Notes: generated by a model from the sequence alone, not told the origin. 64,000 nucleotides of DNA from Neodothiora populina (GCF_041146345.1 NW_027191411.1:62001-126000), one strand, 5' to 3'. Positions 2,923 to 37,756 are shown, numbered from the stretch's first letter. Made by a program: numbers and translations.

Positions 2923-5038
2923 ATGGGTGCCATTGCACGGGCTAAGTCATAGCATCCAAAACAGAAGTTGAAGTGGAGGTGATCGCTCCTCACGATGTCG
3001 ATAACTACGCTCTCGACGACCTGCCTATTCCTGCTCGATTAGAAGGGCCAGCTCAGGTAACGCTAGAAGCACGTGGCGTTACTGAGGCAGAGGGAGCAAA
3101 GGCAGTATTTGGAAAATATGGCAGATACCTTCTCTGGGCGAGGTCAGTATTGCTACTTCGACCAACAATGATACTCGTGCAGATGGTATTCTTACACCTT
3201 GTCCAATAGCCTGTCGTTGGTGATGATCGTCTAGTGAGCTCAGCGCTCGCTATGAAGTCCGTCTATACATACTAATTGCGCTCCAAGCGAATTCGACAAT
3301 AGTACTGTCTACGTTTACCAAAGCTACGCTCCTTCGACGTACGATGCCTTGTCCAACAAGGCAGCGCTCAGCACTGCTGCAATCATTGTGTAAGTCATAT
3401 CGGATTCATGTCTCAGAGTTTGGCTAAACACGTATCGCACAGAGCAGCAGTGACAAAACCACCTATTGCCAAAATCTCCGATGTCATTGGTAGAGCTTCA
3501 ACATACAGCTTTACGATCAGCTGCTATGTCTTATCATACATTCTTTGCAGTGGCAGCAGTAATTTCGCAACATATGCTGTCGGAGTTGTTGTGTATTCCA
3601 TTGGTCAGGCTGGTACAAATATCCTTAACGACCTCATCATTTCGGATAATACCACAGCTCGGTGGCGAACCTTCGGCCTTGCTGTAAGCTTCTCTCCATT
3701 TCTTGTCATGCCTTGGGTTTCAGCCGTGATCTCTGACTCCGTCGTCAACGGGATCGGCTGGCGATGGGGTATTGGCATGCTAGGATTCATTCTGCCTCCA
3801 AGTGCCAGCCTGCTTGTAATTACACTCTGGTACTATCAGCGCAAAGCTAAGCGGCTTGGTATCATAAAAACAAAGAAGATAACCACTTTGGAATTCTTCT
3901 CATCCATCGATGCTGGTGGGTTGTCCATTCTCTGGGTGGGATCGGCAATGTTATTGCTCCCAATTTCACTGGCAGCTACAGCACCAAAAGCCTGGCACAC
4001 TGGCTGGATAATCGCTCTGCTCATCTTGGGACTAGCATTCCTCCTGATATTAGTCCCATACGAAGCCTATGTCTCTAAGCATCCGATGATGCCCCCACGA
4101 TACTTCCGAAATCTAAGCATCGTGCTTGTTATAAAGATTGGATTCTTGGATGAGTTGGCATTCTCCGCATCTCATCAGTATTTGTACAGTTGGGCCGTCG
4201 TGGCTCACAATTACAGCGTCAGAAAAGCCACGTTCTACACATACATCAATGGTGTTGTCCAATGCCTGGTAGCAATGATCGCAGGGCTAATCATCTCGAG
4301 GTCGAGAAGCTACAAGTGGACTGTGGTTGTTGCTTGTCTTGTTCGCACTGTGTGAGCATACAACGGAATGTCTGATCTGAATCCCTACTTGCTAATTCTT
4401 GCATCAGCGGGTTTGGGCTCATGGTACATCTTCGAGGGGCTAACAACAGTGACGCGGAATTGTTCATTGTGCAGGCTATTCAAGGCATTGGGTCTGGAGT
4501 GATCCAGATAGTTTGCCTCACGATCGCGGTACGTCTGTGTGAGCTGGCTAAACCATTGAATATGTTTTTCTGATTACCGATGCAGCAAGTGGTTGTCCCG
4601 CATGCTGAAATGGCTCAAGTTTCTGCTCTAGTCATGCTTGCCATCTGTCTAGGTTCCGGTCTAGGCAGTACTACTGCCGGTGGCATATATACCAACAATT
4701 TCAAGGAAGCGTTGCGAAACCGCATGGGCGATAAAGCATCACCGCAAACCATCGAAGCTATTTACAATTCGATTCTGGCGTCGGATCTACCTGCGTGGGG
4801 CACCGCTGAAAGAACTGCTACGAACTTAGCCGTACGTACATATTCATGAACAAGGTAGTCCGCTTATTACTAATCTGCGTAGTACTCTGATATCATGAGG
4901 TACATCTCCATCACAGCACTTGCTATATCTGCACCCGTCATAGTATTTGCCCTTTTGTTGCCAAATCTACGCTTATCAGACAAGCAAAACATCGTGGAGA
5001 CCAAGCGAAGCGACCCAGATGTGGGTATGGAGAGATGA
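2923..5038 (+). CDS. MFS siderophore-iron transporter (SIT/ARN/MirB-like), multi-exon; 5' end uncertain
   Basis: Spliced product has ARGV..AE, KPPIAKISDVIGR, GIGWRWGIGM, IDAGG and LPAWGTAERTA..LAYSDIMRY, typical of fungal SIT transporters. Includes a 24-nt microexon at 3210-3233; stop TGA 5036-5038. Confidence 0.85.
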
Positions 5039-10855: not shown

Positions 10856-11784
10856 GTTTTTGTTTCTATCTTCAAGTATGATATTGGGGGCGTTGAAGCG
10901 CGCCGGGCGTTCTCTCCTGCTCTATTTCTTTGATTTATCCGGGCGAGGGGTAAGTCGCAGTAGTGATGCTAATAGACGCAGTAGCGGCGGTGGAAGTCGG
11001 CAGGTGACCACCGGATTTGATAATCTCGAGGCAAGGAATATAATTATAGTTAGAAAGGAAGCCGATCAGCCCTGGGATTTATCTTTTGTGATTCGAGTCG
11101 GTGTGTGTTTTATGAGAAGAAGAAGAGAAGACAGAAACAATATAACACATCTCTGCCTGTTTGTTCCTTCCCGAAACAACAGATCCGTTCTGGAGTTGCG
11201 CCCGCATTTCTTCAAAGGACCCGCTGAAAAGTGGCAGGTGCAGGCGATGAGGTCATCCTCCCCCCTTCCTCTTTTCTTTAATACCTTCAAGGTACCTTAC
11301 CTTACTGTACACTGCTATCTGGCTACCTGGGTACGGTATACAGTACAAATACATATTCTCAAGGCTGCCAGATCTTTCGTTGTATCTTATCATCTGCTGG
11401 GCTGTTTGTTGGCTGATGCGCTCTGCTTGACCTTTATAGGCAGCCTACAAGTATATCTCCGCACACGAAACACACTGTAAGAAAAGCCAGACGTTCTTTT
11501 TGGTATCCCTGTACCGTTCCTGCCTCCAACCATATCTAAGGTACCTTAGAAAAGAAGGTAGCTGCCATTATATCTGAGTGCCGGAGCGGCCTGTTGTCGA
11601 CTGGTGAATGGACTATATTGATCCTCTCATCTGACCACTGAGACCCTCGGTCATCTGCAGCTGCACCAAACGTTTAATCTATGTTTTACTGCTGTCACAA
11701 GTTTCCATCCATGTGCTTGTGAAATCACACGCAGTAGATACAGTGTGTTGCCTTGATCATTTTGATATCAATCGTCTCGACAAG

Positions 11785-12483
11785 ATGCCATCCGGCCATC
11801 AAGTCACGGAAGCTATTGCCGTCTCCCTGGCTCAATCCGGCCTTCCACCAACCAAAGCCTGGCTGGACTCTTTCGCGTCTACAGCACGTTTGACAACTCC
11901 TCTTCCAGCTCTGCAGAAGACTGCTCTCTTCCGACTACTCGCCACAGACATTACTACTTCAGTCCAGCCTTCCACATCAAATACTCTACCCTCGACTGCT
12001 CTGGATCCGCAAGTGGCCGAACAACGATTGCCCGGTCCTGTTGTCTGTCAGATTTTGGACATTGAGGATGTCGGTCGTTCCCGCTGGTCCCAGATCGAGA
12101 ATCTCGAAGCACACGCTCGCGGAGAGACGACCAAGGGCAGAGAAGTCGTGAGGGTTGTTCCCGGCGAGCTTGGCGAGAACGGCGCTGTACCTGATGCCTC
12201 TGCTGCAGACAAAAGCCTCGGTCCTCACAAGCTCCTGCTGCAAGACGCGAGAGGCACCAGGATCTACGCATTCGAGATGACCAGGATCGAAGGCCTTTCA
12301 CTGACCACCCCGATCGGTACGAAGCTCGTCTTGCGTCGAGCCACCATTGCCCGAGGTGTTGTTCTTCTGGATCCCTCCTCGGTCGAGCTTGTTGGTGGCA
12401 AAGTCGATGCCTGGGACAAAGCCTGGAGAACTGGTCGAAAAGACAGTCTCCGTGCCAGAATCGGCGGTGCGGAAGACGACTAA
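11785..12483 (+). CDS. RMI1: RecQ-mediated genome instability protein Rmi1 (N-terminal helical + OB-fold)
   Basis: QILDIEDVGRSRWSQIE, GPHKLLLQDARG..YAFE, TPIGTKLVL..ARGVVLLDP..LVGGKV; first ATG at 11785. Confidence 0.82.
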   Translation: MPSGHQVTEAIAVSLAQSGLPPTKAWLDSFASTARLTTPLPALQKTALFRLLATDITTSVQPSTSNTLPSTALDPQVAEQRLPGPVVCQILDIEDVGRSRWSQIENLEAHARGETTKGREVVRVVPGELGENGAVPDASAADKSLGPHKLLLQDARGTRIYAFEMTRIEGLSLTTPIGTKLVLRRATIARGVVLLDPSSVELVGGKVDAWDKAWRTGRKDSLRARIGGAEDD

Positions 12484-12524: not shown

Positions 12525-14362
12525 TCATCCTCTCAGCCTCCTGAAAACACGCTCACATAGCCTTCTGGTTCTCGCCGTTTTTGTTTCAGACTTCTCCTCG
12601 ACGCTCTGCATCACATCCTTCTTGTCGGCGTCCTCAGCAACAGTCTCCCGCGAGTCGCTGGTTAGATCGGCTTCAAAGCCTGCGTGTTTCACCTCATCCT
12701 TGACCTCTTCCGCTCGTACCAGTCCTCGGTCTTTAACAAACAAGCATAAAATCAAGCAAATTGCCATGAACGGCACATTTAAGATGAACACGCTCCTGCT
12801 CGCACTTGCATACGCATCAAGAACGCCCTTTCGTTGCGCTGCTGTTGTGCCTTGTAGATCTGGAGCACTGTAAGACGACAGGGCAAGATACTCGAAACCC
12901 GTAGGAAGGTTGTTCTTTAATCGTGCTTGTAGCACAGCTGCCGACGCCACCAATCCGATCGCCCCACCCGTACAGCGCAGGAAATTGCGATTGCTCGTAA
13001 TAACCGCTCGATTCGCTTTGGTACAATGCGCTTGCAAGGCCACCAGGATGGGCTGGAACACAAAGCCGACTCCAGCACCTTGACATGCAAGAATGACCAC
13101 CATGGCGGTTATCGGTGTGTCTCGTGTGAAGATGCAATTGAGAGCTGCTCCCAAAGTCCAGAGAAAGAAGCCTATCCAGAGAAGCTCACCGTAGTGACCT
13201 ATCCTCGAGTTGTACTGTCCCGAAAGTACCGAGAAGACCGATTGAAACAGCGGAAAAGCAATTACGATTGATGCCGACACAACAGGCGAGAGTTGTCGTG
13301 CATTCTGCAGGAACAAAGGCACATAGTACAACGTCGAGTAATAGTTGAATCCAGAGAGAACGTTTTGCGCGAGCAGCACGCCGACAACCGGGTCTTTGTA
13401 TACCGACCCTGTAGCTCGCGTCAGTGAATCTCCCATCGTTGCGCGCTTTGACCGCTGGAGGAAGCTCACCTGGCATCATGGGTAGTCGCGCCACCCTGTT
13501 CTCGACGATCACAAATGCCACCGCGCAGATCCCGCCCAACACCAACATCGAGATGACCATTGGCGACTCCCATTGGAAGTAGGTGCCACCGCCAGAGATA
13601 GGGACTAAGATCAGAATCACTGCAGCTGAGCCCGTCAACAGGCCCCACCAATCGACGACCTGCATTCCTTGTTTCAATGAAACTTTTCCAGGTTTCCCGG
13701 GAAGCAGCTTCATACATGCCACCGAAGTCATTGCTGCTAGGGGACAGATGACCCAGAACAAGCCTCGCCACGTGGACTTTTGTACAAATGCCGCAGCAAC
13801 GGAAGGACCGACCATGTTACCCAACCCTACCATCGAACCCAGAATGCCTTGGTACTTGCCACGCTCCTGCAGAGACACTATGTCCGACACCGTCACCATG
13901 GTCAGTGACGTTATGCCACCAGAAGCGACTCCAGAAAGACCGCGAAAGACATACAGCATTGTTGAGTTGACGGCAAACCCGCATAGGAGATCACTGACAG
14001 AAAGCAGTATTAATGCTGATATCAAAATCACTTTTCGTCCTATGGGAGCCCAATTGTGTTACTGTCAGCAACCTCGCAATATTATGAGATCCGAGTGAGG
14101 GACTCAATGCGTGCATACCAAAAATATCAGACAATCGTCCATACAAGACCTGAAAGACGGTATTGGCGATCAAAGCACTGGTACCAGCCCAGCTGACAGT
14201 CGCTTCCGCATGCAAGTCTCTACCGATATCCGGAAGAGCGAGACCGACTCCATTCTGGTCCATGAAACATGTGAAGAGTGCGACTGACAGAGCACAAAAT
14301 GCCGCGAGAAGTTCTTGCCGGGACAATTTGACGCTTTGGTCTTGGAAACCTGGTTCCGCCAT
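12525..14362 (-). CDS. MFS transporter, DHA2 (14-TMS drug:H+ antiporter-like), 3 exons
   Basis: LYGRLSDIFG/RK motif A, VSDIVSLQERGKYQGILG, TWRGLFW, VDWWG, NRNFLRCTGGAIGL. Introns about 14118-14040 and 13469-13409. Confidence 0.9.
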
Positions 14363-14997
14363 CGTGGTGTGTTGGGCGACTGGCACAATTCCAAAACTCC
14401 TGCAATTGAATGGTTCGAAGATCCCTGCGCCACATCTAACCAACGCAAGATTTATTGCATCAGACGCGGGAATCAAGTGGTGATGTTTCTCTTCGAATCG
14501 AGCACCGGACACGACGGGGAAATAGCCGTGCTCACGGTTTTTCGCTTTTTCTGTACTGCACTTTCATGGCTGGTTTTGTGATTTGCGTCTCCGATAGCCC
14601 TTTGTCAATAAATGATAGTAGCAGTAGTAAGTAGAATGCCGGAAGATGCGCCGCGAGTACTGCCAATTCCGCATTTTTTGCTTGGTACCCACGCAAAGAA
14701 GGCGATAAATGAATCTACTAGACTGTATCTGGCGTCAACGTTACATGAAATCGACATCTTGCCTTCTCCGACACCGAAATAAGATCCGCCGGGAGACATA
14801 CTTCTAAGTCGGACCTACCAAATCCGGCCACCTATCCCAGAGACACCACGTCAGATGATCGAGTCTCTTTTTCCATGGATACATCCCCTTTCCGCCTGGT
14901 CCAAGTGTGGATACAGTCTTGACAAACCCGAAGATTACACTACGATACGAACACGGTAAAGGCACCTTATCATACCGAAGAGCTGCTTGTGTTCGGG

Positions 14998-15016
14998 GAC
15001 GGACCTCCGATAAGGT
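14998..15016 (+). promoter_or_regulatory. Composite CGG-N4-CCG (Zn2Cys6-type) + GATAAG element upstream of the MFS gene
   Basis: GACGGACCTCCGATAAGGT; 17/19 identical to the reverse complement of 17462-17480. Confidence 0.55.
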
Positions 15017-15358
15017 GGGTTTTCCCTAATCACAATCCCGAGCCTCCGGGTCTTGGACATGCTTCGATTTGTGCTCTTTTGTCTCCGTCGCGAGCCCGGC
15101 CCTCTCTGTCTGTCTAGTCATGTACTGGGCATCCACACTTTGCTGAAAAGGACATATGAGTAATGCAGATACGGAGAACTTACCTTCATTGGAAATCACC
15201 GAGCGCGAGAACATGCGGATGGGAGTTATGGCTGCCCTAAGGAGGATAAAAGGCTCGCCGAAGCATGTAGGACTTGGTATCCTGAGATAAGACAATTTCG
15301 GATATGACATCTATTCATACCATTTCATACCAATACCCACCGCCATATCCTCTTTGAT

Positions 15359-17041
15359 TCACATCGTCCTCCAATCATTTGCCGCCTCCCAAGCAGCCGC
15401 AATCTGAAGAACAGTACTCTCATCCCACCACTTGCCGACAACCTGCATACTAACCGGCAACTTCGCACGACTCTCGACCCCCAGCCCCTCAAGCACCTCC
15501 AACATGCCAATCGGCATCGCCAGCGCCGGATGGCCAGACTGATTGAACGGTGCCGTATTAGACGTCAGCCCAATCTGTTTCGAGATCTGCGCGATCGGAC
15601 TGGCGTCTGGCGCCGCATGGCTAGTAGCCACGTACGGCAACGTAGGCGTGATGAGGACATCGTACTCCCGCAACGCAGCATCGTATGAATCCCGCAACTG
15701 GCGCGACAAGTTCGTCGCTTTGCCAAGTAACGTCGGGAAGGCATGTAGTGCGTACGCGCCGTTCAGGTATATGTTTTTCGTCGCGCTGTAGGCATTCTGC
15801 CACTGCGCCTGCTGCATCGGATGGAGTAACGAGTTGAGTTTGAGCATTTGATGGCCGCGGCGCCCGAAACCCCCGCTGCCGTGGGTTTTGTTCAGGAAAC
15901 CTCCGGTTTTGGACACGCCTGTCCAGATGGCGGCGCCGGATTTGTGGATCGGGATCGAGACTTGCGACACGCTTGCGCCGAGACTTGTGAAGGCTTCGGC
16001 GGCGCGGAGGAACGTCTCTATCACTCGGGGGTCTGTGGCGGGTGTGGAGAGGGACTCGGTGATGATGCCTATCTTCTTGCCGGCTAGAGGGGACTGCAAG
16101 GGGAGGGCTGCGACAAGCTGGCTGTATTTGGGGACATTCTCTGGTTTCGGCGCCGCGAAGCCTCGGTCGTCGATATTGTCTGTGCCGGCGATGACTTCGA
16201 GGAGTAGAGCGTTGTCGTGCACTGTGCGTGTCATTGGTCCCACATGGTCGTTTGTAGGCTCGTTGCTGCCGCACCCAGTATATGGCACCAGGCCGAACGT
16301 GGGCTTGAGTCCTATGATTCCACAGTTGGCTGCCGGCACGCGGATACTGCCGCCTTGGTCTGCGCCCACTGATCCCCATGTCTCTCCCAGCGCGACCAAG
16401 ACTGCGGAGCCACTCGAACTTCCTCCTGAACTGTAGCCTCTGCAATGCGGGTTCTCGACTATCCCGGTGCCCGAAGAATGACTCGTCGCCGAGTGGCAAA
16501 GGTTTTCGCACACGGCTTTGCCAGTGATATGCCCGCCTGCCTCAAGGATCCGCGTGACGAGCGTCGCGTCCATGTCTGGTGCGTGACCCTCGATGAATTT
16601 CGTGCCCATGAGCATGGGAACATCTTTGACGGAAATCATGTCTTTGAGACATAGCTTCTTGCCTTCTAGAAGTGGACGAGTGTCGCCTTTTGGAGGGTCG
16701 GCGTCTACAATGTCGCATTTCCAGGCCCATGCTCCGTGAGTGTTTTCTTCTTTGCTCGGGAAGCGAATGTTGGTCCGTGGGAATCGTGATTCGTCTACTG
16801 TTGGGATGTAGTCTTGGTACAGATCAGTTGGGCTGTATGGAAAGTATTCACATTGCTGTCTGGACTGCATACCTTCCATTCCCATCAATGCCTCGCTGGC
16901 ATCGTGGAAGACGGCCAATAGCCGCCTGTACTCCTCCTTTTCGTCATCTTTGAGACTCACGCCTAGTTCTGAACATAATCTGTCTACTGTTTCTGTGGTC
17001 ACGGGATTGCCTTGCGCAGCTTCAAGTGTAAACACAGACAT
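15359..17041 (-). CDS. Amidase-signature enzyme of the bacterial-like amidase/urethanase type, 2 exons
   Basis: LKDMI (Lys), DATLVTRILEAGG.ITGKAVCENLC, SSGGSSSGS, GADQGGSIRVP, FNQSGHPAL. A 60-nt GTATGC..AAG in-frame intron lies at 16872-16813. Confidence 0.9.
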   Translation of the reverse strand: MSVFTLEAAQGNPVTTETVDRLCSELGVSLKDDEKEEYRRLLAVFHDASEALMGMEGMQSRQQCEYFPYSPTDLYQDYIPTVDESRFPRTNIRFPSKEENTHGAWAWKCDIVDADPPKGDTRPLLEGKKLCLKDMISVKDVPMLMGTKFIEGHAPDMDATLVTRILEAGGHITGKAVCENLCHSATSHSSGTGIVENPHCRGYSSGGSSSGSAVLVALGETWGSVGADQGGSIRVPAANCGIIGLKPTFGLVPYTGCGSNEPTNDHVGPMTRTVHDNALLLEVIAGTDNIDDRGFAAPKPENVPKYSQLVAALPLQSPLAGKKIGIITESLSTPATDPRVIETFLRAAEAFTSLGASVSQVSIPIHKSGAAIWTGVSKTGGFLNKTHGSGGFGRRGHQMLKLNSLLHPMQQAQWQNAYSATKNIYLNGAYALHAFPTLLGKATNLSRQLRDSYDAALREYDVLITPTLPYVATSHAAPDASPIAQISKQIGLTSNTAPFNQSGHPALAMPIGMLEVLEGLGVESRAKLPVSMQVVGKWWDESTVLQIAAAWEAANDWRTM

Positions 17042-17357
17042 GATCGCGCAATGAAAAGGTATCACAGCAGCTGAGAAATGACTGTGTCGATGGTGTTCAC
17101 GCGATCACTGCGACCAATGTAGAGGCACATTTACGGCGACAGACTTGCCTACTTTTTGCGCCGTCATCATGAAATGGCTCGGAGTATCTCTACACTCATC
17201 GAAATCATCTGGCGTACAGTACAAACCCATAGCTCACGCGCGAAATGCCCCGCATCACTATCTTCGGCGGGGCACGCATCACGTGTGAATGTACAAGTAT
17301 GAGACGGATAGGCTTATCAACATGCTCGAGCTGTATTGACATACTGTACACTGCTGA

Positions 17358-17480
17358 TCGGACCTCCGAGGAAAGTAGATGGACTTGACGATGGTGGTGA
17401 CGAACAACGTCAGAACTTCTAAAGGTGGGGTTTCGGCCCAAGCTCAATGGCCTATCTCCAGACCTTATCGGATCTCCGTC
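17358..17480. promoter_or_regulatory. Two CGG-N4-CCG elements (one fused to GATAAG) in the divergent amidase/PuuE-like promoter
   Basis: TCGGACCTCCGA at 17358-17369 and ACCTTATCGGATCTCCGTC at 17462-17480. Confidence 0.55.
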
Positions 17481-17810
17481 TCAGGACTTCCTGTTCTATC
17501 ACAACCAATGGACACAACCCTGGTCTGGTGTGATCATCCATCGCGCGCTTTGGTTGATTGGAGCTCTTATCTGCTCGCTCCCGAGTTCCTTCTCAACCAT
17601 GACATCGCCGTCGCTTAGCGTGTCAGCTTGGCCGACAAGTATGTCAACACATGATAGGCGATTATACAGCTGCTGAATTCGGTCTCCGAAGTGCGACCCC
17701 GTATTGGTAGACAGTATTGAGTCATATAGTAGGTGGTAGTAAGTGAGATGGTAGGTCCGCGCGTGATATAGACAATTCGCATCTACGCCTGTCAGGTCAT
17801 CATACACACG

Positions 17811-18916
17811 ATGGTACATGTAGAAGAGAGCCTTCAGCTTCCGCGAGACTTCGAGGGTAGGTTATGGTCCATCTCATCGTACCTTCACAGCATTGACAAT
17901 CCGAACGTACAGGCTTTGGTGAATTTGGTCATGATCCCAAATGGCCGAACGGAGCTCGTATCGCAGTTTCATTCGTGCTCAACTACGAAGAAGGTGGCGA
18001 GCGTAATGTCTTAGACGGAGATGGCACATCGGAAGCCTACCTCTGGGAGAAAGGTCCATCAGGTGGCGGTCGCGAACACAGACACTTGAACGGCGAGCAA
18101 GATTTCGAATATGGCTCGCGATGCGGCGGTTGGCGCATCGCCAGACTCATGAAGGAGTTTGGCTGGAACATGACCATCTTCGCCATCGCCGTCGCGATGG
18201 AGAGAAATCCGACATGGGCCAAGGCTTGCGTGAGAGAAGGTCACGAGATTTGCGCGCATGGCTACAGATGGCTTGATATCTGGGATTATAGTCTCGAGGA
18301 CGACAAGGCATACATCAAGAAGACGCTCCAGAAGCTGGAGGAAGTAACGGGTGAGTTTCCTGACGGTGCATACTTTGGTCGAGGCACACCGAACACCGCT
18401 TCCTTGTTACCTCTCATGTGGAAGGAGCTTGGTAAGAAGATGCTCTATACGTCCGAGGTCTACAATGACGACGTGCCTTACTGGGTTGATCTGCCGTGGG
18501 AGAAGGACCTCCCGGCCGAGCAGAAGGAAGGTCTACTCATGGTCCCGTACAACTACGACTGTGAGTTACAACATCCATGAGGTACTCTGCATTGTGACCG
18601 AGACTGACGTGATCAAGGCAACGATGGCAAGTTTCACATGAGCCCCGGCTTTACGAGCTCGGCCGGCAACACGTATGAGGCATACCTCAAAGACGCGTTT
18701 GACTGTCTTTATCGTGAGGGTGGCAAGATGATGACCATCCCTCTACATTCGAGGATCACGGGTAAGCCTGGTCGGTCAGAAGCACTTCGGAAGTTCATGA
18801 AGTACATCTCAGAGAAGGAAGGTGTGTGGGTCACGACCAGAAGGGAGATCGCGAATCATTACCGGAAGACGTTCCCTTACAAGCCTGGCTCGAGGGCTGG
18901 AGGCAACGGGAGTTAG
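17811..18916 (+). CDS. Polysaccharide-deacetylase-fold hydrolase, PuuE-type (metal-independent allantoinase-like), 3 exons
   Basis: Spliced LPRDFEG/FG...PKWPNGARIAVSFVLNYEEGGER, QDFEYGSRCG.WR, HEICAHGYRW (Glu-His-Trp pattern of PuuE), YNDDVPYW, PYNYDCNDGKF, MMTIPLHSRITG.PGR. Introns about 17857-17912 and 18561-18618. Confidence 0.85.
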
Positions 18917-19210
18917 ACTTACCAACCAAGTATTGAGGCTGCTTCAGGATAGGATTTAATAGTTTTAGTAACCCGTGCAGGGAGTATGATATTTAGTAGG
19001 CTTCGGGTGAATCCCAATACATCTCGAGGGCGACCCTGTCCTAGTCTACTCCATCTTAGTCGCAATGTAATTATAGCTCGACGAAGTGCCATGTTCAATG
19101 CGTGCACCTTCGCAGAGTGATCAATCTTAGACCACTTGTATGGCGTGATCAGTCGCATACCGAAGGTAGAGGTATTTGACGGTAGGTCTTATCTCACATC
19201 TCCCCATACC

Positions 19211-19237
19211 CTGATAAGGTAGGTCCTCCCTTATCAG
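19211..19237. promoter_or_regulatory. Inverted pair of GATAAG sites upstream of the Zn2Cys6 gene
   Basis: CTGATAAGG-N9-CCTTATCAG, a perfect 9-bp inverted repeat. Confidence 0.5.
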
Positions 19238-19335
19238 TCACCTCCGGGATCGCACAGCAAGACGATCCTCCAAGCACATATGATGAGCTCGCGCACCCGG
19301 GGGGACGTCCGAGGCACATGTCCGATATTTTCATT

Positions 19336-21360
19336 ATGCAAACCACGCTTCCGAACACTTCTCCAGCTTCAAATGGTGATGCTCGCAAGACGGCGGCGAC
19401 CAGCACGGTCGGGTTGGCTGATAATCCGCGTAAGCGGCAAAGGACGGCGTGCGATCGCTGCAAGAACCGGAAACAGCGCGTAGGCATCTATTTGACTCGA
19501 ATTTGTGATATTGAACAAGTCTAATTGAAAGGCTAGTGCGATAATTTGCATCCACAATGTTCCAATTGTACGAAAGCTGGTCTGGAATGCACAAAGCCCC
19601 CGGAGACCGAGGCATATAGGCTCAACAGCAATTACACCAAGACCTTAGAAGACCATGTAGCTACCTTAGAGGCACGACTAGCGACTTATGAACAGCAAGC
19701 ACAACAGCAGCCTCAACTAACACCGAGTCCTCTCGAGAGCTCAGGTTCACGATCTCATAGTGTTGCTGATATAGTTGGGTTACTGTCACTTGGCAATGCC
19801 GAAGCTCCGTCTTACATCGGTTCCTCGTCGGGGTACTCGATGGCGACAAACCTCGGTGACATGGTCCAGGCGACGATATGGAACAAAGCCCTTTGGATGC
19901 CGGCGGCACCTGGTGAGATTGCGTCCATAATCAACGATGATCAAGCGGTTGGTCCAGAGAAAAGGCCTCTGACAGGCGCGCCTGCGCGACGCATCACCAT
20001 CTCCGAGTTGCACAACAATGCCGCAGAACCTCCATCTGATGCCTTAGGCACAAGATTGATCGAAGCCTATCTTGTTCGCATCCACCCGCGCTTCCCATTC
20101 CTCATACGATCAGACCTGTGGGATTATCACCGCAAGCGTAACACTCTGGGGACGGAGCCTGCCAAAGCTGAAGACGGCTTCTCCCTGTTCGTGCTTTATA
20201 TGGTATATGCCATTGGCGCGCTCAACTTACGATTGACCGAAGCATACAAAAACACTCCACCAGAGAAGTTCTACATTTCAGCTTTGAAGCATGTTTCTTC
20301 CGCGAGGGAATCATCCTCGATCCACAATGTCGAGGCAATGGTCTTACTGATTCTATATCATTTCCGATCCGAAAGTCACTATGGGCTGTGGCACATGACG
20401 GGTCTGGCTATGCGAACAGTGACAGATCTCGGACTGCACCGACATGCCTCGACTAGACATCTCCCGCCTTTTGTCGCTCAACTGCGGAGGAGGTTGTTCT
20501 GGTCGTTGTACTCACTTGAAGGCACTCTCGCAAGCACACTGGGGAGGCCCTTGTCGCTGTCAGATTGTGACATTGATCAGCCGCTGCCATTAAGCATTGA
20601 CGACGACGTCCGGTCTGACGGGGTACTGTGCGAGCATATAGCGTTGCCAGGCCGCGAGGCATACCCGTATACGAACATGAGTCAGTCTATACTGCTTTTT
20701 CAGTTGCGCAGATTCGAAAGCAGGGTACAGAGAACAGTGTATCGGGTCGACCGAGCCACATCGTCCTTACTGCCCAAGCTTTATCCATTGTATCACGAAT
20801 TAGAGGCCTGGCATGCAAGCATACCACCTGAGCTTGCCAATAGAGAGCTTGACCGACCTCTGCTGAATTATCATAAGACCATGCGATTATTACTCCAACC
20901 TTTTCTGGGTTTGCTTGACCCGGCGGATCCATACTTTCAGCAATGCATCGTGTCGGCAGGTCAGATATGTCAGATTCACAAGCGTTTGCATCAGAGTCCG
21001 GAATACGGCCATAGCTTTATCGCTGTACACACCATATTCGTGTCCGGGATCACATTGTTGTATTGTCTCTGGCTGGGCAGAGAAAAGGTCTGGTCGTTCG
21101 GCGTAAGCAATAACCTCCGAGCGTGCAGTTGTGTCTTGTCGATCATGGGCGAACGGTCTCCATGGGTCAGACGGTACCGCGACGTCTATGAGAGTCTAGT
21201 GGAAGCAACCATGGCGGCGCTTGACACCCCCAACGGCAGCGACACGTCCAATCGTCAAGTATTGAATGCATGGGAAGGGTTCTCTTTCGAAGGTCTAGAT
21301 GGTCTCGACGATGGTGCTTGGAATATGGCAAGAGAGCTTGCAGGATGGATAGACGCGTGA
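19336..21360 (+). CDS. Zn(II)2Cys6 transcription factor with Fungal_trans domain, PPR1/UaY-like (alternative ATG at 19318), 2 exons
   Basis: KRQRTACDRCKNRKQR/CDNLHPQCSNCTKAGLEC across intron 19480-19536, YIGSSSG, AMRTVTDLGLHR, RRRLFWSLYSLE..LGRP. Confidence 0.9.
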
Positions 21361-22410
21361 CGTTGTGAAAGCGGGGGTGGAGTAGAGTGCCTTTTTACTG
21401 TACTCCGTACCTTGATCGACATTCACGAGCGCGACAACGTCAACGGTTGTATGTCCCAAGACGCGTAAGATTTCGTGTCTCTCGTTGGAGGCAATAGTCG
21501 TTTTGCAAAGAAAGAGTGTAGCACTTGGATGATGGGAAATGCTGGGATTATCGAGGTTCCTGCGATACTCCTACCTCTGATTATCACAAGACACCGAACC
21601 AAGCAGCCAAGCTACGGTATCTTAGCTTATCCAGACTCACCCAGTTGATCGTTCAATTGCAAAACACCGGTAGCTCCGAGGACCCTGGCTTCATGAATGC
21701 GTTGCGGTCAGCTTTTCGATGACGTGCCTGGATCACAAAATCGCAAAATCGCGATGGCTCCGCATCCGTTTCGTTCCTGAACATCACGACATATAGCTGC
21801 CCGGGGAGAGCTCGAGTAATATAAGACGTTTGTATGCTCCGCGCCTGAAGAAGTCCAATATCCATACCAGTGCATACTCCAAACCATCATTGCCATCACT
21901 CGTGCAGCAGTCCAGCAACCGAAAGACAACTACGAATTGCCGCGGCAGTTGGGATAAACCAATAAGTCAGCGAGTCGAGTCTTCACCGCAGCTGCGTGCT
22001 CTTCTCTTGTACTCTCCGACCCCGCATCTGCACCTCCATTGACCCTCGCGCGACATCCGTCTAATATCGCGATACTTTGGCAAATGATAGGCACAATACT
22101 GCTCCATACGTGCTTTCTCGCGGTGCAGCTATCACGCAATTTCACGCAACCCGGTCGCATACTCACATCTAAGCTCTCAGCTTCTTAAATTCGCCCAGGG
22201 TGGCATCATCGAAGTGGCTCGGCGAGATTTAACGTTTCGAATTCAACCCGTTCACACCATCACAGGCCAAGATGGCTCTCAATTATATACTGATATATTC
22301 CCTCTCGCTGCTCTTGTATCAGACCATTTGCACCGTTGAGCAACAGGACATCAAACATTACTTTGCCCGAGTTTCCAAGCCCATAAATCGCCTGGAACTG
22401 ACTCAAAATC

Positions 22411-23665
22411 ATGGCTCCGTCCGCACTTCTGCAAACCCCGCTTGAGGGTCATGGTCCAGCTTTCACTTACCATGATCCCTCCCCCAAGATCTTTCCGGAT
22501 GGGATCAAGACCAGTGGCCAACATGCTCCAATCTCTAGTCTGATCAAGCCATATTCTGCTTTTCCCAAAGAAATCACTGGCCAGACAGCTTGGCAAGCAG
22601 AGGACTATAAGAACAACCCTGAGAGATGGACGCATCCATTCAGCCAGGACGAGATTGCCGAAATCAGCCAAGCTGCTGATGACTTCATTGCTTCCGCAAC
22701 TCCATTGACTGGTATTACCAAAGTATGCCTTGCTACCTCATCGAATTCTATCCTTGCCCTAACATTCTCAGGAAAAATTCCCGCTACCCTCAAAGACTGG
22801 CAAGCTACTTCATTCTTTACGGACTGAACTGCTTGACGGCAAGGGATTCATCCTCTTTAAAGGCTTTCCCGTCCAAGAATGGGGACTTCACAAGTCAGCC
22901 GTGGCATACATGGGTCTTGGTACCTACCTCGGATACTTTGTGAGTCAGAACAGTAGAGGTCATGTCCTCGGACATGTCAAAGACGTCGGAGAGGACAGCA
23001 CTCAGATCGACAAAGTCCGCATCTACCGCACCAATGCCCGTCAGTACTTCCACGCCGACGATAGTGATATTGTTGGCCTACTCTGCATCGCCCGCGCTCT
23101 CGAGGGAGGTGAGAGTGATCTAGTCAGCAGTCACAGCGTCTGGAATGCATTGCAAAAGGAGAACCCAGACGTTGCCGAACTTTTGACACAACAGATCTGG
23201 TACTTCGACCGCAAGGGCGAGACTTCCGTTGGTCAAGAAGAGTGGATCAAAACGTCCATCTTCTATCTTGAGCCTGGTGAGAATGGCCGCGTTTACTCCA
23301 AGTGGGATCCGTACTTTGTACGGAGTTTGACCCGCTTTTCGGACAAGGGTCTCATTCCCGCGCTTTCTCCCGAGCAGGAGCGCGCGATACAGATACTCGA
23401 GGATACTTGTGTGCGCCTATCACTGCACATGGTTCTCGAGATTGGTGACATCCAGTTCCTCAGCAACAACCACATCTTCCATGCTAGGACCGCATACAAG
23501 GACTACCCCCCACCGCAACCCAGACGCCATCTCATGCGTCTTTGGCTTGCCGTCCCCGAGACCGAAGGTGGATGGAAGCTGCCCTTTGAAGACAGCTCCC
23601 ACAAAAAGCGAGGTGGTATTCAGGTGAATGACAACCCACCTGTTGCCCCTCTTGACGCCGAATGA
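22411..23665 (+). CDS. Fe(II)/2-oxoglutarate dioxygenase, TauD/clavaminate-synthase-like, 2 exons
   Basis: QYFHADDSDIVGLLC (HxD), GGES.LVS, GDIQFLSNNHIFHARTAY (distal His) and RRHLMRLWL (2OG-binding Arg). Intron 22723-22770. Confidence 0.9.
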
Positions 23666-24555
23666 TTCACGTTGATCAAAACTCTGTAACTAGTTTCCAT
23701 GATATATTATTGAAATCAACGTTCTAGTAGAAATATACATCTTACTATAGAGTTTCAGTGACGTGCACTCTTATCGTTGGCTCTTCGATCATACCGAGAG
23801 GATATACGTTCCATCCTGTGAGCCTCATTGGGGTCTACCGACACGACATTTCGACTTACCCAGTCTTTCTATAATGTCAGATCACCAGTACTTTATCTTT
23901 GATCGTGTTAGGGTTACCCTAACGACATCACTCAAAGGTTCACATCATTCAATCAAACCTGCATATTGTATCTTGATAGGCAAACTCGACAGCGGCAAAG
24001 ATCGGCGTCGACTTCCTAAAGTCCGGGGAAATGACAGGATCAACGTAATCTTCTCTCCTCATCCCCAGTCGTCCTCGACCTCACCCGCCATGTTATCGCT
24101 GTCTTACCTTCTCGATACGGGATGCATATGACATCAAAACTCGCTCATACCAACCGTACCTTATCGCGAGTACAAACCGGATTGCCACTCATCGTATGGA
24201 GTCCTCTAACAACCCTGCGGATTGGCTCTCTAGTGCGACTGATGTGCGCTCTTCACGCGTTTATTTACCGCGAAGTTGTAGTAAGACACTTGGTAGGTAA
24301 CACCTTCGGGCAAAGTTGACATGTGCCCGTCGGCCTGTAGGATAAGAAATGCGTGCCTCTGATGCTTTGCGATATGTATATGTATTGTTCACTCGCGCTA
24401 TTGCAGTCGATATCGAGTGATAAAGTCAATGTTATAGACTAGAACCTGCTGTTTGTACTATTCTATCTCTCTCATACCTCGTCCTCGAGGCGATCGTTTG
24501 CGACTGATCTCACGAGTTGTCACTTCTCCTCACACCTTCTTTCCTGCTTGTCAAG

Positions 24556-26744
24556 ATGTCATCCTCTGCGCAGACCTTACCAGTGGGAGCTGGCTATGGC
24601 GTCGTGGTCGGAGTCGGTTTCTTCTTCGCCTTCGTCATGATGGGGATATCATATTTGCAAAACAGATACACACGATTTTCGACGAAGACCAGTGAGGAGT
24701 TCAACACTGCATCTCGAAGCGTGAAACCTGGACTCATTGCCAGTGGCATTGTTTCTGCGTGGACTTGGGCTGCGACCTTGTTGCAGAGTAGTACCGTTGC
24801 TTATGAGTATGGAGTAGCAGGTAAATCACATAGCAATCTCTATGGTCGATGGCGAGCGCAGTAGAGATACTGATTGTGTTGTCAAGGTCCTTTCTGGTAT
24901 GCCGCTGGAGCCACGGTGCAGATCTTCATGTTCTCGATCCTCGCCTGTAAAGTCAAGATGAACGCCCCCAGATGCCACACGTATCTTGAGATCATCCAAG
25001 CCCGATACGGTACCGTCGCGCATTTGGTTTTTATGTTCTTCGCTTTCGTCACAAACATCCTTGTCGGGTCTCAGCTTTTGCTAGGTGGTTCTGCAGTCGT
25101 TACGAGCCTCACTGGTATGAGTGTCTATGCTGCCATCTTTCTGATCCCCGTAGGTGTATGCGCTTATGTCATTCTGGGTGGATTGAGAGCGACTTTCTTG
25201 TGCGATTACAGCCATACGTTGATCTTGATGATCATCATTCTGTATTTCATGTTCAACGCATATGCGACTAACGACCTGATCGGCTCGCCTGGAGAGATGT
25301 TCGAGTTGCTGCAGAAGGCCGCTGAGCAAAGACCGGTAAAGGGGAATCATGGTGGCTCATATCTGACACTCAAGTCCAACTACGGACTCATTTTCGGTGT
25401 CATCCAGCTTTGTTCCGGAAGTGGCACCGTTTTCCTCGATCAAGCTTACTGGCAGCGTGCGATTGCTTCGAGACCTACAACGGCGGTCAAGGCTTACCTC
25501 CTCGGAGGCATAGCATGGTTCGCCATCCCCTTTGGCTTCGCCACCACTCTTGGGCTCACTGCCGTAGCGCTGACGGATAACCCCCGGTTCCCAACATATC
25601 CCGATCCTCCTTCATCGAGCGATATCTCCGCCGGTCTATCAGCAGCATACGCAGCGCAAGTCCTCCTAGGCAAAGGTGGTGCCGTGGCTCTGCTCATCGT
25701 ACTGTTCATGGCTGTCACCTCATGCGCGAGCGCCGAGCTCATCGCCGTGTCGTCCTTACTGACCTTCGACGTGTACGCTCGCTACATCAAGCCGACCGCT
25801 AGCCCCAGCAATTTGATCTTCGTATCTCACTGCATGATCGCCGTGTTCGGTGTCATAATGGCCGTCTTCGCATGCATCTGGAACGCAGCAGGTATAGACC
25901 TCGGCTGGCTGTTTCTGGTCATGGGTCTCCTCATAGGCGGAGCTGTGTTCCCAGCCGCGTTCGCGATAACCTGGCGCGGACAGTCGCGGGCGGGCGCGAT
26001 CGCTGGCGCTATCTCAGGTCTTTGTGCTGGACTGATCGCTTGGCTGGTGGTTGCGGATCAGTACTTCGGCGCCATCAATGTTGAAACTACAGGAACCGAG
26101 TATGCGACGCTCGCGGGCAATCTTGCCGCAATCATGACAGGCTTGATCGTCACTGTTGTTGTGTCTCTAATCAAGCCTCAAAACTTTGATTGGGAGATCA
26201 CGAGGTCCATCAATGCTTTGCCTGTAGAAGCAATAGCAGATGCGTCCGTGGGCGCTCCTGCACACCAAGATGAAAAGAGCACAACACCTCACGTTAGGGA
26301 TGAAGACGAGAAAGTCAAGACATCCAGCGATGAAGCCGGTGCCTCGCCTTCCATATCCCCAGTCCCTGCGGATTCATCAATAGCAAGAGATGAAGATGAG
26401 GAAATGGCCGAAGACGCAATGCTAGAAGATCACCCTTCGAAATTGCAAGGCGCATTCAAGCTCGCTTGTATCGCATCGTTCGTTTTGACGTTCATCATGG
26501 ACTTTCTGGTAAGCCTGTTCCCGCAAGAGTTATGTTCAAGATCGAAGCTAATCGTGCGCAGATCCCCATGCCGATGTTCTTTTCGCACTATATCTTTTCC
26601 GAGGGATTCTTCACGGCTTGGGTCGTCATCTCGTTTCTGTGGGTGTTTACTAGCACGGCTATATCTGTGATATTGCCTATCGTGGAGACCTTGGGTTTCT
26701 TCAAGAAGTTCGTCAAGGAGGTGATGTCGGGAGGGAAGCACTGA
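24556..26744 (+). CDS. Sodium:solute symporter family urea/polyamine active transporter (DUR3/UreA-like), 3 exons
   Basis: GAGYGVVVGVG..FA, SEEFNTASRSVKPGLIASGIVSAWTWAATLLQSS, GGLRATFLCDY.HT, DQAYWQRAIAS, ASAELIAVSS..TFDVY. Introns 24821-24886 and 26509-26562. Confidence 0.93.
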
Positions 26745-34104: not shown

Positions 34105-36446
34105 ATGCCCAGGAGCACCTCTACCACCAAGGAAGTGAAAAATGCAAATTCAATGTCGTCGCCCAAGAACGACATGTCCTCTCCAGAGGAACCAGTCACA
34201 ACTGCAAATGAAAAGCAGCATCGCCCGAAACGTTGTCTTACATGCGCTGCCAGGAAGGTAAAATGCGACGGCACGCGAGATGTTTGTCTTCGGTGCCAGA
34301 GACTTGGGATTGAGTGTCGGTGGCTTCGATCAGGTAATTACTTTTGCTTTCTTATCCTGGTGTAAGGCGGGGGGAAAGTCATAGAGAGCCGAGATTATAT
34401 CTTCTCTGAAAGGAAGGCGCTACGACTTGGAATCGCATTGGATACCTTGATTATCTGGACTCGTATTAGCTGTTATCCAAGCCATTGGTGTTCATAGCAA
34501 GAATGGCGATATCTGCGCAGCCGGATCAGCAGGTTTCTGTGGACTGAGGATAATGGATTCCAGAGGCCCTGCAGGATACCATGCAAAGACGTTTTGTTTA
34601 GCATCAGGGGAAACAAATAAACTAATGTTTGACAGAAGGTTCTCCACGGACTCGACGAGTCACACCTGATCTGAATGTCACAGAAGCAGGCCATAAGCGG
34701 ATACGAACGCTTGCCGCTTGCGACCCATGTAGGAAGCGAAAGCTGAAGTGCGATGGAGGCCGGCCTTGTACAACTTGTGAACGGCGCAATGTTCGCTGCA
34801 CATCGCAAGCACATACTCCAGGTAGCAACACTTCACCTACTAATACCACCCCACGCGACAGCCGCGCCACTAGTCTTTCGCTTGATGATTCGTCTTTACC
34901 CGACAGTAATACATTGCGATTGCTCATCGATGCCTACTTCAACCGAGTCCATCCTGTATCATGCAATAACTTCTTGCATCATGGATCTCTCTTTGAGACC
35001 CTGGAAAGGGGCACATCACCTCGGCTTTTGCTAATGGCAGTGTGTGGTATCAGCGCCAAATTCCAGGATGACACCATGATGCAGGAACAAGGCCAGAGAT
35101 GGATTGAAACAGTCAAGACGCAATTTGCAAGTGCCATGGACGTCGTTTCCATGACGAACGTAGCTATCTTGCAAACCTTGGCTTTGCATCATGTTCAAGA
35201 AGGCAATTTCGTACCAGCCTGGAACTACATAGCTCTGGCATTTCGAGTTGCGTTACAGCTGAAAATGAATGCCTACGAACCACCTGCCGAATCGGCTGCG
35301 CAAGCGCGAAACTTCGCGCGGCAGGAGAGCAGGGTCCGACTTATGTGGTCCATATATGTACTACACTGTCTCTTGTTATGCGATGAAGTCCACAGCAATG
35401 CAAACCTCATGGACAAGCTTCCGTTACCTTGCAATGCCTGGAATTTCTTCCAAGGCCTGCATTGTCAAACCCTTCGATTGCAAGATCCCATGGGGGACCC
35501 GCAACAAGTCAGCGCAACCAATCCATGCGCGTATTACATCAAGGTGGTGATCATCCGAAGTGAGATTATGAGGTTCAACCAGTCTCTTGTCTCCATTGAT
35601 CAGACATATCCGTGGCAGGCTGGATCGACTTTCCATCACCTAGCAAAATCCCTGGAGAACTTCAGGCAAACTCTACGAGCGAATATCTCGTTCGAAGTAC
35701 AACAAATGCAGAACTTCCGAAGCAGCAGGCAACTCGACATGTTACTAATGATACACACGTGGTTTCATCACTGTAATTGTCAGCTTTACGGATTGTGGAT
35801 CGAAAATCATCCCCGAGCCTCGACTAATTTCTTCCTTTCTTTGGCACCTACAGAGTTTGCTCTGAGTTGTACTATGAAGAGTATTCTACATGCGAAACGG
35901 ATGTCGCGTCTCGTGGAAAAGGTGCTGGAACAAGACCCTATGCACAACTTTATTGATCCCTGGCTTGCTATCAGCATGCTCGATTCGGCACAAGTTCTTA
36001 TCGCAGCGGCCCTACGGCAGACCACACCTGAGGAGAAGCAAGAGATCTTCTCTATGCTTCGGATCAACATTCGAGTGCTTCGCACAATGAGAGTGACCTT
36101 TGGGCTTGCCGAAAAGACGTACAATGCGTGCATTCAATTCGTAAGGAATGCAGGGTTTCACGAACTTGACGATACGACGGTGCCTCCCGTCAACACTCAA
36201 AGGACCCCACACTCGGAGATGATTGCAATTGTTAGGCGCTACCCCTTTCTAGTTGCGCAAGCGCCGCCAGCAAATCAAGAAGAGAGTTTATTCGACGATG
36301 GCTTCGGTGCTTACGAGCAGGAAGAAAAAGAGTGGACCGATATGCTTCGGGGTTTGAATACCGAAGCCTCAGTCTCTATGGACATTTTCGATGCGTCCTT
36401 GTCGAATGGTCAGTCTGAGCCACTTCTTGGAAACTGGACATTTTGA
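34105..36446 (+). CDS. Fungal transcription factor with two tandem Zn(II)2Cys6 clusters and a Fungal_trans domain, 2 exons
   Basis: CLTCAARKVKCDGTRDVCLRCQRLGIEC (exon 1) and CDPCRKRKLKCDGGRPCTTCERRNVRC (exon 2) join in frame across intron 34334-34635; RQESRVRLMWSIY. Confidence 0.82.
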
Positions 36447-37756
36447 AGGAATTTTTTTACTACAGACCGACAGGCGGTCCCAACACGGATTCTCCGTTGC
36501 TGTTTTTCAATGCAATGTCAGTGTCAGACCATGACACTGTCAAGCATGTAACCATAACTCGACGTCTGGTCGACGACTAGTACGTGATGCATCCGCTACA
36601 GCCACATGAGGTCCCTTGACCGATAGCATCTCCACACCAACAGGCAGAAATAAACGCCAAAGGTCGCATCTCATTTATGAACATTGGGCCATAGAATGAC
36701 GACGCTGTTGATGCGAAGGATGGCCAATGCGGGTCTCACTTACGACATCGATGCGTTCCGGTAGCTTGTCGGTATCTAGTCAGGACGCATAAGCTGATCA
36801 TCCCGGCTCGACGAAGACTTTGGAAGAAGCATATCCGGCCTTGATTCCAATGGATTTGGTGAAGCGTACGACGTCATCTCTCAAGGCATGTGAAAGCGGT
36901 CTCCACAATAGCAGAGGCACACGGGCGGAGAAGAGAGAAGAGAGTAGAGATGTAGGCAGAGGGGAAGGAAGCAGAGAGACTAGCCAATGCGAGACCATTG
37001 AAGCTATCTGGTTTGCAGGACGAAAACAAGAAACGAACATAATGACGCGGAGAGAGCTGGGCGGATAGAGGAGGATTATTGGCGAATGGTCAGATACCCC
37101 TGGGGGAACCGTGAGAATGTACTTTACGTAGCTCACAATTAATCGAATATCTCTTAGAAAGTTGTTCGTTAAACGCCGGATTTGGAGAAAGTGCAATGTC
37201 GTCGATCAAGATCTCTTCGTAGACCCCAGTTGACAGACGGAATATTCAAGAGCACACGATGAGACAAGTACCTGTTCACGCACGTCGTCTCGACGATCCG
37301 TCAATGAGAACATCTCTGCACAGCCCATGCGACAAAGATTACAGGTTGCAGATAAGGTATGTGTAAAGGTTAGAGGTTGAAGATGACTGTTTCCCCGCTT
37401 TTTCTACGAGTCGGCTACTTGATCTACGGCACCTTAACTTTGATCGCTCTGTGTAGCGCTGTGTTGCACTCTGTCGTCGAGACCGCAGGCCGAGAGAGGA
37501 AACTCGATTGTTGTTTTGTTATCACTTTCTCTAGTTTTGTAGTGCGGTGATGGAGACTGTTCCTCGTTCTTGAGTGGATGTGTACTTCGTAATGTAAATA
37601 TGTGGTATATAGGTACTGTGCTGAAAAGGATCGATATGTGTATATAATGTTGCTATGGCTATAGTAGGTAATCGTACCTTTCCCGTCGACTTCCTCAGCC
37701 CAGCACCTCTATACCACCATCTCGACCTCCAAATCACTCGGTTCTAGTTACATGCA

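Follow-up and report, generated by a model that had tools for sequence, protein, structure and literature searches.

Six neighbouring genes lie between positions 12525 and 26744 of a 64,000-nucleotide stretch of Neodothiora populina DNA (GCF_041146345.1 NW_027191411.1:62001-126000; this whole stretch is hereafter the window), and they raise the question of which of them act together and in what process. The original prediction, made from this single stretch, read all six as a dedicated nitrogen-scavenging pathway with an importer, an oxygenase, a ring-opening hydrolase, an amidase, a second transporter and a regulator. We find that the conserved cluster consists of four of these genes in the window, respectively encoding an MFS transporter, an amidase, a predicted PuuE-type hydrolase and a Zn2Cys6 regulator, and of five in related fungi, where a gene for an NCS1 permease is added. 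These four genes probably constitute a nitrogen-regulated module for the ring opening of a small cyclic ureide or imide and the deamidation of its product, with the adjoining dioxygenase and DUR3-like transporter as bystanders.

That the six genes are real and contiguous, as had been predicted, was confirmed by a Pfam search of the open reading frames (ORFs) of the window. Together with the two promoter regions that are discussed below they are arranged as follows:

12525 to 14362, minus strand: MFS transporter, DHA2/TRI12-like, 565 amino acids, exons 14119-14362, 13470-14039 and 12525-13408
14363 to 15358, unstranded: 5' region of the MFS gene, with promoter motifs
15359 to 17041, minus strand: predicted amidase-signature amidase, 540 amino acids, with an in-frame 60-nucleotide intron at 16813-16872
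17042 to 17810, unstranded: amidase/PuuE bidirectional promoter, the spacer between the divergent genes
17811 to 18916, plus strand: predicted PuuE-type (NodB-fold) cyclic-amide hydrolase, 330 amino acids, exons 17811-17856, 17913-18560 and 18618-18916
19318 to 21360, plus strand: Zn2Cys6/fungal_trans regulator, 661 amino acids, with an intron at 19480-19536 that interrupts the zinc cluster
22411 to 23665, plus strand: TauD/TfdA-family Fe(II)/2-oxoglutarate dioxygenase, 401 amino acids, intron 22723-22771, a neighbour outside the conserved cluster
24556 to 26744, plus strand: SSF-family DUR3-like transporter, 689 amino acids, introns 24821-24886 and 26509-26561, a neighbour outside the conserved cluster

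The outer ends of this set are the stop codons of the MFS gene (12525) and of the SSF gene (26744). The spliced models of all six genes close in frame without internal stops, the acceptor of the first MFS intron being ambiguous between 14040 and 14016. Pfam matches were obtained to Amidase (E 4.9e-81), Polysacc_deac_1 (2.4e-14), Fungal_trans (1.7e-33, accompanied in the regulator by a partial Zn_clus), TauD (4e-33) and SSF (3.1e-16), and MFS_1 was matched on three exon ORFs with E values from 5e-08 to 1.5e-23. The amidase and a dioxygenase exon are respectively 96% and 99% identical to N. populina AAFC00_006529 and AAFC00_006532, which lie on the same contig of 2,021,948 bp.

The membership of the cluster was decided by comparison across fungal loci. 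One metagenome scan with the PuuE-like exon recovered 57 loci (designated here by L numbers), 47 of them fungal-type (at least 58% identical); as these are metagenome contigs, several of them from the same or close species, the locus counts are not independent. Of the fungal-type loci, 29 have at least 1.2 kb of upstream sequence, and all of these except L027 carry a divergent amidase gene within 3 kb of the PuuE-like gene (28 of 29). Of the 19 fungal loci of at least 9 kb, 7 contain the MFS gene, 6 the regulator and 12 an NCS1 gene. When all window ORFs of at least 110 amino acids were considered, only those of the MFS transporter, amidase, PuuE-like hydrolase and regulator recurred in the loci of at least 9 kb, one further match having been traced to a second MFS gene at 3303-4352. 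The MFS gene co-occurs with the amidase/PuuE pair in both orientations, and the regulator is linked to the pair, on either side, in L002/L036, L004, L006, L008, L009, L010, L011, L015, L016 and L051. At least six different gene orders or orientations are found among the loci:

NCS1 (minus), MFS (plus), amidase (minus), PuuE (plus), regulator (plus)
regulator (minus), amidase (minus), PuuE (plus), MFS (minus), NCS1 (plus)
PuuE (plus), regulator (plus), MFS (minus), NCS1 (plus)
NCS1 (minus), amidase (minus), PuuE (plus)
amidase (minus), PuuE (plus), NCS1 (plus)
MFS (minus), amidase (minus), PuuE (plus), regulator (plus), which is the order of the window itself

Genes beyond these five families vary from locus to locus and are unrelated (AMP-binding, GH10, lipase, M18, WD40 and GAPDH). 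Furthermore, the PuuE-like and amidase genes share a contig in all three named genomes that could be read unambiguously (Mytilinidion, Clohesyomyces and Massarina), the same-contig call being a proxy from the 'longest contig' field of the protein matches and hence weaker than real synteny. The conserved unit is thus a divergent amidase/PuuE pair to which a dedicated regulator and one or two transporters are added, and it persists through repeated rearrangement.

The dioxygenase and SSF genes behave differently, and a search as permissive as E<=1e-3 found them in none of the loci (0 of 57). By the same contig proxy, with the same weakness relative to synteny, the dioxygenase orthologue and the amidase or PuuE-like protein fall on separate contigs in 14 named Dothideomycetes (Clohesyomyces, Massarina, Viridothelium, Macrophomina, Zasmidium, Setomelanomma, Periconia, Polyplosphaeria, Amniculicola, Zopfia, Lophiotrema, Paraphoma, Diplodia and Pleosporales sp. 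CAS-2024a), and only in N. populina do they share one. The PuuE-like protein, with 63-71% identity outside Dothideomycetes, is less conserved than the dioxygenase, which is 77-88% identical across Dothideomycetes, Leotiomycetes and Eurotiomycetes; because of this identity across classes the dioxygenase looks like an ordinary orthologue with a role of its own. Its solved relatives are FrbJ (5eqn, E 2.8e-28) and 7n7v (E 1.7e-26), and it reaches no NCBIfam cut-off. The SSF protein scores 186.9 bits against TIGR00813 (cut-off 184) and has Atlas neighbours named 'Urea active transporter' (score 0.95). Membership of these two genes in the conserved cluster is not supported, and they adjoin it only in this lineage. 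The co-occurrence of six families, which the original prediction had offered as its check, therefore holds for the MFS, amidase, PuuE-like and regulator genes and fails for the other two; ordinary orthology, which it had itself named as speaking against its reading, is what was found for the dioxygenase.

The promoters divide the six genes along the same line. The sequence CGGACCTMCS occurs four times in the 64 kb against 0.25 expected, and none of 100 shuffles reached four. Two of the four have the palindromic sequence CGGACCTCCG, or TCGGAGGTCCGA, whose spacing is CGG-N4-CCG and which in the window is confined to the MFS and amidase/PuuE promoters. The sites are located as follows:

14810 and 15000, MFS 5' region: CGGACCTMCS
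17359 and 17750, amidase/PuuE spacer: CGGACCTMCS
15000 and 17359: the palindromic sites, CGGACCTCCG
14810, MFS 5' region, and 17750-17759, minus strand, amidase/PuuE spacer: CGGACCTACC
19219, about 100 bp upstream of the regulator start codon: GGACCTAC

Neither CGGACCTMCS nor the palindrome occurs upstream of the dioxygenase and SSF genes. Because its sites are limited to the MFS 5' region and the amidase/PuuE spacer, the element links three or four genes and not six, and the originally predicted shared promoter element is thereby retained for the MFS and amidase/PuuE promoters and lost for the other two. The regulator had also been likened to PPR1 and UaY, a likeness for which no specific support was obtained: a PDB search returned no relative of it, PPR1 included, and the candidate site has the CGG-N4-CCG spacing, as opposed to the CGG-N6-CCG that we take to be the UaY/PPR1-type spacing.

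Outside close relatives the exact 10-mer is rare, and it is informative only in degenerate form. We compared 24 distinct orthologous amidase/PuuE promoters, in which the degenerate palindrome CGGA[CG][CG]T[CG]CG is present in all eight regulator-linked promoters (L036, L004, L006, L009, L010, L011, L015 and the window) and in none of the 16 without a visible regulator, with the qualifications that the promoter sequences are phylogenetically related and that several of the 16 'regulator-less' contigs end within 1-3 kb, so that absence of the regulator from those loci is not established. Related TCGGASSTCC sites are also found in the NCS1-MFS spacers of the regulator-linked L002, L006, L008 and L015. 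A second signal, GATAAG, occurs in 23 of the 24 orthologous amidase/PuuE promoters, the shuffle maximum being 16. The GATA enrichment originally reported for the window was borne out, with 13 GATAAG in 5,165 bp of cluster spacers versus 19 in 21,822 bp of other non-ORF segments, and a single one in the regulator-dioxygenase spacer. The following sites bear on the individual genes:

14966, 15009 and 15286: GATAAG in the MFS 5' region
17313, 17464 and 17566: GATAAG in the amidase/PuuE spacer
19188, 19213 and 19230: GATAAG in the regulator 5' region
23770, 24160 and 24341: GATAAG in the SSF promoter

To judge from its relatives, the hydrolase is of the PuuE type and not an HpPgdA-type cyclic imidase. 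Its best PDB match is PuuE 3cl6 (E 1.7e-49), HpPgdA 3qbu giving only 2.4e-05, and its NYEEGGER and HGYRW blocks are identical to those of 3cl6, so that the PuuE-like label of the original prediction stands. The fungal proteins align over the full length of TIGR03212, the PuuE equivalog model (positions 2-297 of 297), and score below its cut-off of 424.6 bits. The two window exons reach 193.2 and 92.2 bits, the full-length fungal orthologues P0004, P0008, P0035 and P0087 reach 286-309, and L028 and L032 reach 266-285. A bacterial control, L058, whose gene lies near an XDH-like gene, clears the cut-off with 432.3 bits. A maximum-likelihood tree of 34 rows unites the fungal PuuE-like proteins, Aspergillus nidulans AN3354 included, in one clade (support 99/100), and the nearest sampled bacterial row is the bona fide PuuE L058 (support 84/90, not starred). 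The enzyme is probably metal-independent, and we take it to carry the PuuE-type replacements in the NodB metal-binding motifs. Substitutions in the metal triad of the NodB motifs of PuuE enzymes are described in a passage of PMC8092297, where U. maydis PuuE1 receives passing mention as 'not analysed'. The fungal PuuE-type proteins are widely annotated as 'chitin deacetylase 1'. As a separate observation, the deposited AN3354 model (P0092, AN3354.2) lacks the conserved 'EEGGER...' block carried by close Aspergillus orthologues and looks like a model with a mis-called exon, which would account for its low identity of 55%.

The divergent partner can be assigned to the amidase signature family, with a PF01425 score of 273.5 bits against a cut-off of 27. 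Its closest structure is the Rhodococcus amidase 3a1k (E 4.5e-95), and it remains below the NF005565 cut-off of 545 with 469-484 bits. The motifs GGSSSGS and GGSIRVPA are visible in its translation, and we take them to be the context of the catalytic Ser-cisSer-Lys triad. The MFS transporter matches the NCBIfam DHA2 EmrB subfamily below cut-off. Clustering of all locus ORFs identified the NCS1 permease (PF02133) in 16 loci (L001, L002, L006, L008, L012, L015, L018, L019, L021, L023-L026, L033, L036 and L037), and in the related fungi its gene is usually paired divergently with the MFS gene. Its sole PDB relative is the hydantoin permease Mhp1, and one of its Atlas neighbours is named 'Allantoin permease family protein' (score 0.92). 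Since no NCS1 match was obtained in the 64-kb window at E<=1e-3, the Neodothiora cluster appears to have lost or relocated this gene.

Based on these observations we propose a two-step scheme. The substrate would be a small cyclic ureide or imide resembling allantoin, hydantoin or succinimide; the PuuE-type hydrolase would open its ring, and the divergent amidase would then hydrolyse the exposed terminal amide or ureido group to release ammonia. The MFS transporter, joined in relatives by the Mhp1-like NCS1 permease, would carry the substrate or product across the membrane. The linked Zn2Cys6 factor is predicted to activate the genes via the TCGGA-SS-TCCG palindrome, while AreA-type GATA sites may place the cluster under nitrogen control. 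The original prediction held that the substrate cannot be read from sequence, and we agree; a PuuE ancestry together with an NCS1 partner resembling Mhp1 suggests the class of small cyclic ureides or imides. By analogy with HxnM/HxnN of A. nidulans and with the bacterial imidase/half-amidase route, the cluster probably works by ring opening and subsequent deamidation, controlled by GATA factors and by its own regulator. In the bacterial case, Blastobacter sp. A17p-4, an imidase reportedly opens cyclic imides to a half-amide, which a half-amidase is said to deamidate; it shares with the present cluster the two-step logic, by which alone and not by sequence we liken them, and differs in organism and perhaps in enzyme families.

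The closest fungal parallel lies in the nicotinate regulon of A. nidulans, where, according to portions of PMC8478523 and PMC9304392, hxnM and hxnN likewise serve the salvage of ring nitrogen through a cyclic-amide hydrolase of the NodB fold and, after it, an amidase-signature amidase, are often divergent or clustered, and come under AreA-type control together with a pathway-specific regulator. The same portions present the order of cyclic imidase then amidase (PMC9304392) and place HxnM in the HpPgdA-like cyclic-imidase subgroup (PMC8478523, PMC9304392), for which more than 60% identity to the P. putida imidase is the criterion (PMC8478523). By contrast, the hydrolase described here is PuuE-type and lies outside that subgroup, and none of hxnS, T, V, W, X or Y is nearby, a search for the hxn families (hxnV, hxnW, hxnX and others) having found none in the window flanks or the loci. 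HxnR is a C2H2 factor, whereas the present regulator is of the Zn2Cys6 type and the linked transporters are a DHA2-type MFS protein and NCS1. Thus the cluster resembles hxnM/hxnN and is not a member of that family. The yeast DAL cluster and the Aspergillus purine genes resemble it in having an allantoin/uracil-type NCS1 permease, in their control by GATA factors and in ureide ring opening, but these systems rely on a metal allantoinase of the DAL1 type, on allantoicase and on ureidoglycolate lyase, and no gene for any of them is linked here. In this respect the original prediction, which had set the locus apart from both the hxn and the DAL clusters, was right. Similarly, the PuuE allantoinase of Pseudomonas fluorescens (3cl6; TIGR03212) shares the fold, the NYEEGGE and HGYRW blocks, the full-length alignment and an adjacent branch, while the fungal gene scores below the equivalog cut-off and is paired with an amidase-signature enzyme instead of purine-catabolic genes. 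The literature that we searched holds no description of an amidase/PuuE cluster, and the cluster is a variant of the ring-opener-plus-amidase theme that is uncharacterised in fungi.

Other readings of the locus fit parts of this evidence. In plain allantoin utilisation the PuuE-like protein would be an allantoinase, NCS1 an allantoin permease, and the amidase a replacement for allantoate amidohydrolase. The full-length alignment to the PuuE model, the position of L058 as nearest bacterial row and the name of the NCS1 neighbour are all consistent with this, as is the succession of a PuuE-like and an amidase-signature gene in the bacterial loci L059 and L060, the latter with a reductase-like gene in addition. 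However, in the tree L059 and L060 do not group as sisters of the fungal clade, every fungal score lies below the equivalog cut-off (266-309 bits), and no gene for uricase, allantoicase, allantoate amidohydrolase, a ureidoglycolate enzyme or urease was found in the window or in any fungal locus. Moreover, A. nidulans alX mutants, which lack the DAL1-type allantoinase, reportedly cannot grow on allantoin even though AN3354 falls within the fungal clade, which argues against a redundant allantoinase. For these three reasons, namely the score, the want of a linked purine-catabolic gene and the alX phenotype, we consider an allantoin pathway unlikely. A narrower version of the proposed module is a hitherto undescribed pathway of Pezizomycotina for a hydantoin-type or other cyclic ureide distinct from allantoin, with the PuuE-type enzyme acting as a metal-independent 'hydantoinase', the amidase replacing a carbamoylase or half-amidase, Mhp1-like NCS1 uptake, and Zn2Cys6 control via TCGGA-SS-TCCGA, from which the Neodothiora cluster would have been remodelled with loss of NCS1; we put this forward tentatively, as a possibility on the doubtful side. 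The original six-gene pathway, in which the TauD protein would hydroxylate an N-heterocycle before the PuuE-like and amidase steps, with the MFS and DUR3-like proteins as transporters under one regulator, draws on the contiguity and consecutive numbering of the genes in the annotated genome (AAFC00_006529, _006532) and on the three GATAAG of the SSF promoter, and another importer could have replaced the missing NCS1. Against it stand the absence of the dioxygenase and SSF genes from the loci, the separate contigs in the 14 Dothideomycetes, the lack of the palindrome from both promoters with a single GATAAG before the dioxygenase, and a degree of dioxygenase conservation unlike that of a niche pathway gene, so that this pathway seems improbable; what stands of the predicted catabolic unit is the hydrolase, the amidase, the MFS transporter and their own Zn2Cys6 regulator in a GATA-rich setting.

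Were the cluster to serve detoxification or self-protection, a toxic cyclic imide, lactam or hydantoin originating in plants or competitors would be rendered harmless by the hydrolase and amidase, and the DHA2-type MFS protein would export the compound or its products. The likeness of this protein to DHA2/TRI12 efflux pumps fits such a role, and a portion of PMC9304392 describes intermediates of the hxn pathway as toxic. The near-universal GATAAG of the orthologous promoters points instead to nitrogen-source control and the linked NCS1 permease is of the uptake type, which makes this role quite improbable. Finally, since most loci come from related Dothideomycete-like fungi, some of the co-occurrence is owed to common descent, and the order could be inherited synteny with no common function. 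The linkage of the same families through at least six orders while the other flanking genes differ, together with a conserved palindrome that tracks the presence of the regulator, leaves this the least probable of the readings and a very improbable one. The four-gene nitrogen-regulated module is what we favour, and apart from the relatedness of loci and promoters and the short contigs noted above, several points weigh against it. Enrichment in the window is limited to the full site, the half-site CGGASST occurring 29 times where 28.8 are expected. The 60-70% identity group (L027-L035, L043-L047) shows the amidase/PuuE pair alone, neither a transporter nor a regulator being visible. The MFS transporter is of the DHA2/TRI12 efflux type, and export therefore fits at least as well as import. 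The SSF promoter equals the cluster promoters in GATA-richness, so that this gene could share nitrogen control with the cluster, and the linkage of the dioxygenase and SSF genes was judged from metagenome loci and, for the dioxygenase, the contig proxy.

Nitrogen salvage from heterocycles in fungi is known in detail only for purines and nicotinate, and the cluster offers a testable entry to another route, in which a widely conserved amidase/PuuE pair is accompanied by its own transporters, regulator and predicted binding site. It would also correct the 'chitin deacetylase 1' annotation of the fungal PuuE-type proteins. For genome mining, the case illustrates how a six-gene 'pathway' that is plausible from a single genome shrinks to four genes under synteny.

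Several further loci carry related enzymes. L028 (407-11051) is a different fungal combination of cyclic-amide enzymes: its PuuE-like gene is a paralogue (63% identity), and the neighbours of this gene are a distant amidase (36%) and a fused hydantoinase A/B gene of the oxoprolinase type. In two gammaproteobacterial contigs from metagenome-assembled genomes (L059:244-2628 and L060:5848-9180) a PuuE-like gene with a sub-cut-off score of 376-377 bits is directly followed by an amidase-signature gene, and in L060 next by a beta-hydroxyacid dehydrogenase gene, which is tartronate-semialdehyde reductase-like below cut-off. The bacterial scan yielded seven loci, too few for inference of function from context, and we regard these neighbours and L028 as weak functional hints.

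In the window itself the six genes are flanked on the left by the housekeeping gene RMI1 (11635-12483) and on the right by one ORF without a Pfam family and a PNP_UDP_1 gene. A second amidase-signature gene is located at 294-1700 on the minus strand (PF01425, E 5.4e-73; about 37% identity to the cluster amidase over 95 amino acids), and about 2 kb from it, also at the left window end, is the second TRI12/DHA2-like MFS gene (3303-4352, plus strand); the two may form another small amidase-transporter unit. On the right-hand side, some 8-12 kb from the cluster, a second Zn2Cys6 regulator (34626-36443, plus strand) and a BAHD-type transferase (37748-39094, plus strand) are encoded.

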